Positions 13,282-16,391 of a DNA stretch of 64,000 nucleotides are shown here, piece after piece. The stretch is taken from positions 40,870-104,869 of the forward strand of contig CAKOMK010000005.1 of assembly GCA_934096645.1 (NCBI GenBank). The letters are read 5' to 3'. The notes beneath the pieces are model-generated. The model ran no database searches. It was not told the DNA's origin and worked only from the letters and a program-made list of their open reading frames with translations. Source of the stretch: an uncultured Bacilli bacterium. GTDB taxonomy: Bacteria; Bacillota_I; Bacilli_A; RF39; UBA660. Each line of letters begins with the position of its first letter. The first letter of the stretch is position 1. A program made the position numbers and the translations under genes.

Positions 13282-14883
13282 ATGAATGAGATAAGTAAAG
13301 AAGAATTAATTGAGAAAATCTCTTTAGAATATAAAAAAAATAAGAGTCAAATATTAAATGCCATTAGAAATTGTGATGGTGAGTTTTCTATTGTAGAAAT
13401 AGAAAAAGAATTAGATGATTTTTATAGTGAAGAAGAGATGCCTAACGTTTCTTTTACTTATGATAAAGATTCAATTGAATGTTTTTATTTTCCTGATGAA
13501 GTTATTTTAGAAATTATAAATAATATTCCTAGAGATATAAAAAAATTGACTGTTAGTGATAGAGTAGCTAGAATGATAGATTTTAGTCAATTTAATTTAG
13601 AAGAAGTAATTGTTATTTCTAGATATACTCAAGCTGATGATATAACATATAAATTACATCATGATTGTAAGATAAGTAGAGTTGGTAATTTTTGTTATGA
13701 CTATTATGATTATTTAAATGATGGTAATGATCTTTATTATAAAGCTCAACATTTGACAAATGAAGAAATATTAGAATTAGTTCATAAATATAAAGCTAAA
13801 AGTTATAGTGTTGATTTTGGTAAAAAATATATTAGTTTGGGATTTGATAAAGTGAGTGTGAATATCTCTGCTCATTTTGAAGATATGAGTGAAGTTTGTA
13901 AGTTTGTGGTTGCTTTAGAAGAAGATGGTTATGTTGTAAAAGAAGTGAATTTATTTTCTTATGATCCAATTGATATAGATTATATTAATCAAAATTATGT
14001 TCTTTTAGATAAACTTGCTAAGAGAACGGATATATCAGTAGATTTTCCTTTTAGTAGTTCTACAATGAATTGGTATGAATTTAGAAGTTTAGTTGAAACA
14101 ATTAGATGGTATAGAGAATTAATTAATAGTTATGATTTGTCACCTGTTGAAAAGCTTGCTTTTGCTTATGATATTTTAAAAACTTTTGAGTATAATGCAG
14201 AAAGAAAAAACGAAGATTCTAGTGTATCAAGAGAACCTCAAAAAATTATATTTAGTGGTAATATTGTTTGTGCTGGATATGCAACATTTTTAAAAGAAGT
14301 TATTAGAGGACTTGATCCTAATATTAAATTAGGAACATATTCTTTAACTTGTTTTGAAGATAATGATGTTGTAGTATCTGGAAGACATATGAGAAATATA
14401 GTTAGGATTAATGATGATAAATATAATATTCATGGAATTTATTCACTTGATTCAACTTGGGATAGTTATAGTAAAAAACGTGCTAAAATGTATGGAAATG
14501 AATATGATGCTTTAGATTTATATAAATATTTTTTAGTTCCATTTTCTAAATATAATGAAGTTTTTCCTCATGAAGAAAAGGATTCAATGTTTTATGGTGA
14601 TATAGATTTTTTGAATAAAGATGTTAATCCTGAAAATATTAAACGTGCTATTGAAATGTGTGGTACATTAAAAAATAAAGAATTATTTTATTGTGAAATA
14701 AATGATATGTTTGATAAAGAAGCTGATGCATCTACAAAATTAGTAGAATTTAATTCAAAAAGTATTCCAAAAGAAACATTATCTAGAATAATATATAATG
14801 TTAGAAAAGCTGAAGGATATAGTGAAACAGAAGCTAGTAAAAAGTCAGAGGACTTTATTTATGAAGGTGAGAGGTCACTATGA
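13282..14883 (+). CDS. Cytoplasmic hypothetical protein with a transglutaminase-like cysteine-protease core
   Basis: 533 aa with no signal peptide. 'GNIVCAGYATFLKEVIRGL', then 'SGRHMRN' and 'HGIYSLDSTWD', give the Cys...His...Asp arrangement of the transglutaminase-like (papain-like) superfamily. Confidence 0.5.
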   Translation: MNEISKEELIEKISLEYKKNKSQILNAIRNCDGEFSIVEIEKELDDFYSEEEMPNVSFTYDKDSIECFYFPDEVILEIINNIPRDIKKLTVSDRVARMIDFSQFNLEEVIVISRYTQADDITYKLHHDCKISRVGNFCYDYYDYLNDGNDLYYKAQHLTNEEILELVHKYKAKSYSVDFGKKYISLGFDKVSVNISAHFEDMSEVCKFVVALEEDGYVVKEVNLFSYDPIDIDYINQNYVLLDKLAKRTDISVDFPFSSSTMNWYEFRSLVETIRWYRELINSYDLSPVEKLAFAYDILKTFEYNAERKNEDSSVSREPQKIIFSGNIVCAGYATFLKEVIRGLDPNIKLGTYSLTCFEDNDVVVSGRHMRNIVRINDDKYNIHGIYSLDSTWDSYSKKRAKMYGNEYDALDLYKYFLVPFSKYNEVFPHEEKDSMFYGDIDFLNKDVNPENIKRAIEMCGTLKNKELFYCEINDMFDKEADASTKLVEFNSKSIPKETLSRIIYNVRKAEGYSETEASKKSEDFIYEGERSL

Positions 14884-16391
14884 ATAAAGTTAAAGTAAAT
14901 GATTTTATCGATGTTTTAGCTAGATGTAAAGGTTTTAATACAGAAATAACTGATATTGTTAAAGAATATATGCAGAAAGTAATTTCTAAATATGAAAAAG
15001 TGTTTCCTAATGGAATAGATGCTTCTTTAGATAATAATAAATATTTTATTAAACCTGTTAATGGTAGATATTCTATAGAAGATTTTTTACTTAATAGAAT
15101 GTTTAGAAGTATTAATTCAATAGATGCAAATCATGTTGATGGCGAAGCGTCTGCGACTTTTTATCCAGCAATAAGTAAAATATCTTATGATAAATCTAAA
15201 ATGGTTCGGTCTTTATATTCTTATTTTTTTAGAATAGGCAAAGAGAAATATTATATTTTAAAAAATAAAGATATTATAAAAACACGTTTTAAGCATACTA
15301 TGATGCATGAACTTGGTCATGCGTTAAAAAATAAGTATGATGGATGTTATGATTGTAGATTTGAAGATGATTATAAAAGGGTGTATGATGAATTAGCTAA
15401 ATTAAAAGAATATAATGATATTCTTACTCCTTATGATGAAATAAGAAAGTCTAAAGATGAAGATAACTATCAACGATGTGTATTTAATGGATTAACTTAT
15501 TGTGGTAAAAATAGTAAAAAATTTTTTGTTAATGAACATCATTTAATATTAGATGAAGAAATTAATGAATCAGAAGCAATGGAGTTTAGTGGATATAATA
15601 CTGGAGTAATAAAAATTTATTATTTAGATAGTGGATTTGTCAGAAATAGAAATCTTGGTGTTGGTTATTATAGTGATTGTGGCGATATGTTTAGAATATT
15701 GCTTGGTGATAAAGAAATATTTGAACTATTATATGTTGATCCTAAAAAAGGAATAAAAAAATTTAATAGTTTATATAATGATGTTTTAAGAGAATTTTAT
15801 GGTAGTGAAGAAACAGCTCTTGATTTACTTGTTAAAAATATTAATAATTTAGAAAAAAAAGCTAATGTTGTAAAAATGAATGAAGCTTTTGCTAGATGTT
15901 TAGAGCAAAAAGTAAATAGATGTTTTAATGATGCTAGTGTTAGTAATAATGAATTATTAAGACAAATAAGAACATATAGATATTTCTTTTATTCTTATGA
16001 TAATCCAAATAGAAATTTAAAATTAAGATCTCATCAAATATTAAATGAATTAGAAAAAAGAGTTATGTCTAGAAATATTTCTGCAGTAAGTAGTGTATAT
16101 CAAAAAATGCTTAGATATAAAAAATTCCATTTGAATGCAGATAAAGTTTTAAGAAAAAGATATAATGAAAGATATAGTAATGGAGCTAGTGTAAAAGAAT
16201 TAAATCAATTGGCTGTTGTAATAAAAAATAATGCTAGTAACTATTATATGTTATGTGAAGATATTAAATTCTATGAAAAAACTGATAAATCTAAAAGAGC
16301 ATATTTAGATAAAATATTTGATAGTAAATATTCTTATGAACTTGCTATTAGTTATCCAATTTTTGATGAAGAAAAAAGGCTACGAATGTAG
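14880..16391 (+). CDS. Cytoplasmic hypothetical protein with an HExxH zincin-like motif
   Basis: 503 aa. 'TMMHELGHALKNKYDGCYDCRFEDDYKRVYDE' gives HExxH plus a downstream Glu. Its start overlaps the upstream gene by 4 nt (ATGA), implying a two-gene operon. Confidence 0.45.
   Translation: MNKVKVNDFIDVLARCKGFNTEITDIVKEYMQKVISKYEKVFPNGIDASLDNNKYFIKPVNGRYSIEDFLLNRMFRSINSIDANHVDGEASATFYPAISKISYDKSKMVRSLYSYFFRIGKEKYYILKNKDIIKTRFKHTMMHELGHALKNKYDGCYDCRFEDDYKRVYDELAKLKEYNDILTPYDEIRKSKDEDNYQRCVFNGLTYCGKNSKKFFVNEHHLILDEEINESEAMEFSGYNTGVIKIYYLDSGFVRNRNLGVGYYSDCGDMFRILLGDKEIFELLYVDPKKGIKKFNSLYNDVLREFYGSEETALDLLVKNINNLEKKANVVKMNEAFARCLEQKVNRCFNDASVSNNELLRQIRTYRYFFYSYDNPNRNLKLRSHQILNELEKRVMSRNISAVSSVYQKMLRYKKFHLNADKVLRKRYNERYSNGASVKELNQLAVVIKNNASNYYMLCEDIKFYEKTDKSKRAYLDKIFDSKYSYELAISYPIFDEEKRLRM

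Follow-up and report, generated by a model that had tools for sequence, protein, structure and literature searches.

Organization of the A-B locus

We analyzed a 64,000-nucleotide stretch of DNA, referred to here as the window, from an uncultured Bacilli bacterium of the RF39 lineage (contig CAKOMK010000005.1 of assembly GCA_934096645.1, positions 40,870 to 104,869 of the forward strand). The window has about 25% G+C and a strongly positive GC skew, and nearly all of its genes lie on the plus strand. Two of them, which we call A and B, are the subject of this study. Gene A (13282..14883, plus strand) is an open reading frame (ORF) of 533 aa with an ATG start and encodes a transglutaminase-like Cys-His-Asp protein; gene B (14880..16391, plus strand) is an ORF of 503 aa, also with an ATG start, and encodes an HExxH zincin-like protein. 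Homologues of A and B stand together only in the clade of the window's own bacterium, and we favor a reading in which the two are independent enzymes rather than the parts of one system.

A preliminary description, made from the sequence alone, had reported two ORFs of these lengths that share an ATGA and follow nifJ, and its coordinates, lengths, and overlap are correct: the start codon of B lies over the stop codon of A in a 4-bp ATGA. The junction (14866..14883, plus strand) also contains, within the 3' end of A, the Shine-Dalgarno-like site GGTGAGAGG, which is positioned 5 to 13 nt upstream of the start codon of B, with AGAGG 5 nt before that codon. The gene upstream of A encodes a 1133-aa pyruvate:ferredoxin oxidoreductase (PFOR) of the nifJ type. 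On its other side, B converges on a 307-aa radical S-adenosylmethionine (radical-SAM) gene on the minus strand, with a 12-bp overlap, and RecG and YebC follow. The G+C content at third codon positions (GC3) of B is 8%, as extreme as that of its neighbors.

Directly after the PFOR stop codon lies an AT-rich hairpin (13226..13250, plus strand) with a 7-bp AATTGAC/GTCAATT stem and a following T-run. The RNA of 13218-13256 folds at -10.4 kcal/mol (z = -5.9 against shuffled sequences), and the hairpin looks like an intrinsic terminator that would split PFOR from A-B; our terminator consensus scan demands at least three G-C pairs and therefore missed it. A promoter-like site (13237..13266, plus strand; ATGTCA, an 18-nt spacer, and TAAAAT with an upstream TG) ends 15 nt before the start of A. 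It is a consensus match only, and because such matches are no commoner in the window than in shuffled sequence, we treat it as an inference and not as evidence. Given the hairpin at the end of PFOR and the promoter-like TGnTAAAAT before A, A and B probably form a transcription unit of their own, separate from PFOR; they are real genes and are probably cotranscribed.

Gene A encodes a predicted transglutaminase-fold protein with an LRR-like region

The A protein has neither a signal peptide nor a transmembrane segment. Its highest 19-residue Kyte-Doolittle mean is 1.21, and for reference a membrane-anchored 600-aa neighbor reaches 2.32. B also lacks both features, with a maximum of 0.60, in keeping with the preliminary description, which had given neither protein a signal peptide. 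Conservation in A is concentrated at residues ~242 to 523 and includes the motifs VC330AGYA, GRH369, and LD390STWD. The catalytic candidates C330 (14269-14271), H369 (14386-14388), and D390 (14449-14451; all plus strand) are invariant in 90 aligned A homologues and in a 22-sequence alignment of the core, and S287, E290, Y304, R317, D378, and D394 are likewise invariant in the 90-sequence alignment.

In a confident AlphaFold2 (AF2) model of A (predicted local distance difference test [pLDDT], 88.4; predicted TM-score [pTM], 0.83), C330 sits at the N-terminus of helix 330-341, H369 in strand 365-378, and D390 just past strand 383-389, which is the canonical papain/transglutaminase topology (PMC10318531). 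As modeled, A carries the marks of the papain fold (Pfam clan Peptidase_CA), with an alpha+beta core in which one helix has the Cys at its N-terminal end and the strands after it bear the His and Asp. The transglutaminase-like Cys-His-Asp core that had been proposed from the letters of the sequence is thus supported both by the invariance of the triad and by the predicted fold. The model and the alignment place this predicted transglutaminase-like core at residues 258-432 (14053..14577, plus strand), between an N-terminal region that resembles a leucine-rich repeat (LRR) and a helical C-terminus. The LRR-like region, residues ~30 to 255 (13369..14046, plus strand), consists of alternating beta-alpha repeats in the AF2 secondary structure and is also apparent in the family consensus. 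That N-terminal consensus, IPxxIKxLxIP...FLxxFPNLxxLxI, matches LRR proteins in the PDB with E values between 2e-4 (for 4r58) and 4e-3, dynein light chain 1 among them (E = 2e-3); the region is only weakly conserved in the A protein of the window itself.

A word-indexed search retrieved 119 A homologues, none of which has a Pfam assignment; those that carry names are "hypothetical protein [Bacilli bacterium]" entries from metagenome-assembled genomes (MAGs). The exact A protein is present, unnamed, in the searched collection, in a 133-member cluster with contigs of up to 117 kb. A has no significant match in Pfam, NCBIfam, PADLOC, PHROG, or PDB sequences, and at full length it has no Pfam match at E <= 1. 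Its core domain scores 13.9 bits against DUF553 (PF04473), below the cutoff of 20.5, and the best values among 22 members of the family are E = 2.7e-4 for DUF553 and E = 2.8e-4 for Transglut_core (PF01841); A reaches the gathering threshold of neither. We also compared A with Peptidase_C71 Pei, LapG, vasohibins, and arylamine N-acetyltransferases, and the combination of an LRR-like region with a transglutaminase fold matches none of these families, nor Transglut_core or DUF553.

The nearest solved structure to A is TglA of Streptococcus pyogenes (PDB 9crn), a "transglutaminase-like domain-containing protein" with 15% identity in the structural alignment. TglA has 361 residues, compared with 533 in A, and the LRR-like N-terminal region belongs to A. 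The A family gave no sequence match to TglA by phmmer, by family or core-domain profiles, or with two divergent members. We found no paper on the function of S. pyogenes TglA or 9CRN, the literature matches for "TglA" being unrelated 3-thiaglutamate peptide or fungal genes. Because sequence similarity and a functional paper are both lacking, the TglA match assigns a fold and not a function. The A family is a fast-evolving family of gut Firmicutes, and its reaction type (protease, isopeptidase, transglutaminase, deamidase, or acyltransferase) is not deducible from the fold.

Gene B encodes a zincin-like protein, probably of the gluzincin type

The B protein consists of a zincin-like core of ~400 aa and a C-terminal helical bundle, and its central motifs are H143ELGH147 and NE230SE232. 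In the AF2 model, which is likewise confident (pLDDT, 87.1; pTM, 0.81), beta-sheet strands 80-83, 92-95, and 100-103 are followed by a backing helix and by the HExxH helix of residues 130-150 (15267..15329, plus strand), the putative zinc-binding active-site helix, in which H143-E144-L-G-H147 is encoded at 15306-15320. After an insertion comes helix 219-237 (15534..15590, plus strand), a putative glutamate helix with E226, N229-E230 (E230 at 15567-15569), and E232. Further helices lead to residues 406-491 (16095..16352, plus strand), three long helices in a coiled-coil-like bundle that is variable or extended in other members of the family.

Seven relatives of B were retrieved by the word-indexed search, and the same search with an alignment of 68 B sequences returned close relatives only and added nothing. 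An exhaustive profile search yielded 138 B-family representatives at 50% identity, with E values under 1e-30 for 66; the representatives share the ~400-residue core and vary in their C-terminal extensions. H143, E144, and H147 are invariant among the close relatives. Across the 68 aligned sequences N72 is invariant, and Y38, F69, R73, H143, E144, H147, G204, E226, E230, E232, N256, G276, F281, Y285, and C340 are at least 90% conserved; there is also a conserved N-terminal motif, IKPVNGxYSxEDFLLNR. The HELGH and the downstream Glu noted in B by the preliminary description accordingly belong to the conserved set, and the model of B shows weak structural similarity to gluzincin catalytic domains. 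With conservation that is complete or reaches at least 90% in their alignments (90 and 68 sequences, respectively), the motifs of A and B are far beyond chance.

E226, E230, and E232, on the helix downstream of the HExxH helix, are candidate third zinc ligands. In thermolysin and the M1 gluzincins, an Asn-Glu motif supplies a zinc ligand, and by this analogy E230 is the likeliest third ligand of B. In M1 and M4 the spacing from HExxH to Glu is 18 to 20 residues, whereas in B it is ~83 to 85, and there is no sequence similarity between B and the M1/thermolysin gluzincins. We rejected membership in M1, as the GxMEN exopeptidase motif is not present in B and the conserved Glu lies 83 to 89 residues after H143. 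Like B, ImmA/IrrE (Peptidase_M78) and CapP are cytoplasmic HExxH proteins, and the matches of B to them are weak, local, confined to ~50 to 70 residues, and below threshold: around HELGH, B scores 17.0 bits against Peptidase_M78 (cutoff, 22; E = 0.005), and capP matches at E = 0.022. Unlike these proteins, B has no fused or adjacent helix-turn-helix (HTH) partner and lies outside any cyclic oligonucleotide-based antiphage signaling system (CBASS) or phage context, its neighbors being PFOR, A, the radical-SAM gene, and RecG. On these grounds M78 membership was also set aside. None of the 68 B-family members has a significant Pfam match, and the scattered weak ones include four different zincin families, with one member each. 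In B itself, archaemetzincin matches around HELGH with 15 bits against a cutoff of 145. B itself had no match above threshold in family, PDB-sequence, or defense searches. The preliminary description could name a family for neither protein, and neither has a family match above threshold.

It could be argued that B is not a peptidase and that its HExxH is a structural metal site or part of a nonproteolytic hydrolase or a regulator. Foldseek found no significant match for the model in the PDB, all sequence matches to peptidase families fall below threshold, and a spacing of about 80 residues between HExxH and Glu is unusually long. Against this, E144 and both His residues are at least 90% conserved, as is typical of active zincins, and an Asn-Glu pair lies on a later helix. 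We consider a nonpeptidase B quite unlikely and regard B as a zincin-like protein of a new family, probably gluzincin-like.

Co-occurrence of A and B is limited to one clade

Loci with homologues of either gene were fetched and carry labels such as L001. For a census of A genes, we used those followed by 2 kb or more of sequence, which gave 57 informative genes in 29 clusters at 50% identity; a B homologue lies near A in 1 of the 29 clusters, that of the window's own clade. When metagenomes were scanned with the core of A, 80 loci came up, and a profile search of the A-bearing loci fetched at that stage found B only in L018, L019, and L001. Conversely, an A homologue is absent from all eight distinct distant B loci (L006/7, L008/9, L010-L014, and L102), within the flanking sequence fetched, which extends to 10 kb at most; the sources of these loci are uncultured Clostridia, Clostridium sp. 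CAG:921, and metagenomes. The preliminary description had read A and B as a coupled cysteine-protease/metalloprotease cassette or conflict system and had suggested comparing the neighborhoods of homologues. That comparison shows no co-occurrence outside the window clade, an outcome that the description itself had named as refuting the idea, and gene content thus gives no support beyond one narrow clade to a conserved two-gene system. Nothing in these data suggests that either gene depends on the other.

Within the clade, the adjacency is kept over A identities of 59 to 100%. A is 100% identical in L100/L101 and 95 to 96% identical in L018/L019, where the copies are 95 to 98% identical. In L098, A and B are both 80% identical to those of the window and the 4-bp overlap is retained, whereas in L001, at 59% (A) and 50% (B) identity, a 19-nt spacer takes the place of the overlap.

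Outside the clade, B-family genes have a different neighbor. In five of the eight distant B loci, a conserved gene of 143 to 156 aa (~150 aa) lies directly upstream and abuts or overlaps the start of the B homologue (L006:247-696, L010:11014-11484, L011:9550-9981, L012:2675-3121, and L013:9550-10008). The consensus of this small partner is AYSEV..ILN.LE..YK..P..V..FF.EE.D..Y...ID...L..QNL...T...LA.LNLNYWC, followed by a C-terminal amphipathic helix; it has no relative in Pfam, NCBIfam, or the PDB and no homologue in the window. The ~150-aa protein and the B-family gene form an uncharacterized two-gene module of uncultured gut Clostridia, and B is a clear homologue of its larger member (profile E = 1e-109 to 1e-149 over the ~400-aa core). 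As in the window, the upstream gene of the module abuts or overlaps the B-family gene; in the window, A takes the position of the ~150-aa partner.

One of the module loci, L010, is a 14,288-bp MAG contig in which a 7,081-bp unit occurs twice in tandem. The unit encodes a B homologue of 729 aa and the small partner, along with DUF3221 proteins and an extracytoplasmic function (ECF) sigma/anti-sigma pair. The repetition may be an artifact of assembly, or the assembler may have gone twice around a small circular element.

Searches for a defense or mobile-element connection were negative. PADLOC gave nothing for A and only the subthreshold capP match for B, and nothing significant was found for either protein in PHROGs. 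By tblastn, B was not found in a phage collection and A and B were not found in a plasmid collection; neither was found in IMG/VR. With these results and a GC3 equal to that of the neighboring genes, a mobile-element origin is unsupported.

Gene order around A and the variable slot

Gene order, read from the clustering of neighboring ORFs across loci, places PFOR, A, RecG, and YebC in the same sequence in relatives of the window, and the position just downstream of A differs among them. It holds B, followed by the convergent radical-SAM gene, in the window, L018/19, L098, and L001; a second A paralogue in L020; a 945-aa prepilin-like repeat protein in L025; no extra gene in L027, where the radical-SAM gene follows directly; and only a small antisense ORF in L030 and L036, where PFOR-A-RecG occurs without B. 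The tandem A paralogues of L020 (978-4248; 595 and 484 aa), between PFOR and the radical-SAM gene, both keep the Cys, His, and Asp motifs. Gene order thus suggests, as the simplest history, that A was inherited vertically and that B was inserted beside it in one lineage. The arrangement in relatives, PFOR-A-[variable slot]-RecG, would then be ancestral, B would have entered the slot in the common ancestor of the window clade, and the 4-bp overlap would link B translationally to A in this species.

More distant A homologues adjoin cotE, MiaB-like genes, MraY/FtsW, UvrB, or tRNA synthetases, and no single neighbor gene is conserved over all A-family loci examined. A-family genes stand divergently beside cotE in four loci (L005:1270-3662, L015:5355-7743, L026, and L028). 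In L005, L015, and L026 this arrangement stands beside rpsP and khpA; in L005, L026, and L028, A is bordered on its other side by a MiaB-like radical-SAM gene.

The cotE neighborhood may reflect a link to sporulation or inherited synteny. On the former view, A would be a coat- or cortex-modifying transglutaminase or protease made in the mother cell instead of a cytoplasmic enzyme of general function. A signal peptide is not required of coat proteins, and the divergent position beside cotE, together with the FtsW/SpoVE-family and MraY genes that adjoin an A homologue in L016, speaks for such a role. Transglutaminase-fold enzymes, moreover, include spore coat cross-linkers such as Tgl of Bacillus subtilis (PMC10318531). 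However, the annotated parts of the window contain no sporulation gene, and the neighborhoods of A are heterogeneous (PFOR, UvrB, MiaB-like genes, and tRNA synthetases). In B. subtilis cotE also lies near miaB, so the cotE-A-MiaB order may be inherited synteny and not a functional link. We regard a sporulation-specific A as highly improbable.

Evolutionary rates and the meaning of the A-B adjacency

We estimated dN/dS (the ratio of nonsynonymous to synonymous substitution rates) by the Nei-Gojobori method for the window against L018, L098, and L001. The ratio is 0.17 to 0.52 for A and 0.27 to 0.64 for B, compared with 0.00 to 0.09 for PFOR, the radical-SAM gene, RecG, and YebC, in a simple method applied to synonymous sites that are extremely AT biased and, for L001, near saturation. 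The dN of A and B is ~7 to 8 times that of the flanking genes. In the conspecific L018, the radical-SAM gene, RecG, and YebC are 99.6 to 100% identical to those of the window, and the amino acid differences amount to 4.5% in A, 2.2% in B, and 4.2% in a 665-aa protein encoded farther downstream (20340-22337); the dN/dS of these three is 0.17 to 0.32, compared with <=0.06 for the flanks. Because dN/dS is below 1, these substitution counts indicate that A and B are both maintained by selection, yet both evolve fast. Such fast evolution is compatible with accessory or interaction-driven functions; the rate alone does not show coevolution.

Two observations weigh against our reading of A and B as independent. 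The adjacency survives from 100% down to 59%/50% identity (A/B) across L100/L101, L018/L019, L098, and L001, with flanking genes that are 86 to 100% identical. In addition, the dN values of A and B are both raised and nearly equal (0.103 and 0.109; 0.29 and 0.39), which would also fit a coevolving pair. A and B might accordingly be a genuine functional pair in this clade, a two-protease module for toxin processing, protein modification, or conflict in which A took over the role of the ~150-aa partner. The persistence of the adjacency and the fast, similar rates beside housekeeping flanks speak for such a pair, as does the ATGA overlap with its Shine-Dalgarno-like site, retained in L098; B-family genes are, besides, usually tightly linked to an upstream partner, so that the upstream position may matter functionally. 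But A and B do not co-occur beyond one clade, the relatives that lack B keep A in synteny, and unrelated genes occupy the slot downstream of A in other relatives. Moreover, the overlap is lost in L001, the PADLOC, phage (B), plasmid, and IMG/VR searches were negative, and common descent by itself would keep the two genes adjacent within one narrow clade. We consider a functional pair unlikely. A more specific version, in which A displaced the usual ~150-aa partner of a widespread HExxH module and the coupled pair acts as one system, with one enzyme, for example, activating or restraining the other in conflict or proteolytic signaling, seems to us very unlikely. If the pair is functional, it would be an example of nonhomologous partner replacement in a protease module.

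We therefore return to the reading that A and B are independent uncharacterized cytoplasmic enzymes that stand side by side only in this lineage, to which we assign a probability of roughly two in three. As A and B show, a neat overlap between two genes does not by itself make them a system.

Proposed activities of A and B

In A, the LRR-like region would bind a protein target or partner, and C330-H369-D390 would most likely act, in a thiol-dependent reaction, on a peptide or isopeptide bond of a protein substrate, which it would cleave or transamidate. In B, the zincin-like core would bind zinc via H143, H147, and E230 and most likely hydrolyze peptides, with E144 as the general base and the substrate lying along the edge strand of the small sheet; the C-terminal helical bundle probably serves oligomerization, self-association, or partner binding.

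Together, A and B define two protein families that are common in human and animal gut metagenomes and lie outside Pfam, NCBIfam, PADLOC, and PHROGs. They are new families within two well-known enzyme superfamilies: the first combines an LRR-like region with a transglutaminase fold, and the second, with the pattern HExxH...NE, has 138 or more clusters at 50% identity and is found elsewhere with the ~150-aa partner. As judged from the alignments, the catalytic motifs of both families are intact and conserved, and both evolve several times faster than their housekeeping neighbors, which makes them reasonable targets for curation and biochemistry.

Other genes of the window

Upstream of PFOR, the membrane-anchored 600-aa protein (7671-9473) has one transmembrane segment (residues ~166 to 184), an HEVQH motif, and no Pfam match; among all fetched loci it recurs in two conspecific contigs, L018 and L019, and nowhere else. 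We discarded it as a paralogue of A or B, since BLASTP gave no E value below 1.3 against A or below 2.8 against B and both family profiles were negative. A YSVDF motif that had been taken to connect this upstream HExxH protein with A is, given the negative BLASTP and profile searches, a chance pentapeptide.

Directly after RecG-YebC lies a gene cluster (20340-31217) that resembles a type IV secretion system (T4SS). It opens with the 665-aa protein mentioned above, which has no Pfam match, and two small ORFs; a VirB4-like ATPase (23254-25044; TraG P-loop/AAA_10) follows, then a 925-aa protein without a Pfam match and a 269-aa ORF, and finally a VirD4/TraG coupling protein (28722-31217; T4SS-DNA_transf, E = 1.5e-51). 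Homologous genes occur in the same position in L027 and L030 and are also present in L102. Because they hold the same position in relatives, the cluster looks conserved in this group and not like a recent mobile-element insertion. The B homologue of L102 lies ~3 kb upstream of a cluster homologous to the T4SS-like genes. We set aside a functional link between B and these genes, as L027 and L030 keep RecG-YebC and the T4SS-like genes without B.

Near the start of the window (2975-6328), a 359-aa HTH_3 (Xre-type) protein is followed by a 116-aa ORF, which sits at the place of a GntR-type regulator in relatives L002-L004. An ATP-binding cassette (ABC) ATPase (4854-5549) comes next, and then a membrane protein of 261 aa (5543-6328) with a match to phrog_20163 (E = 8e-10). 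Relatives L002-L004 and L022 have the ABC ATPase and a protein of ~262 aa in synteny.

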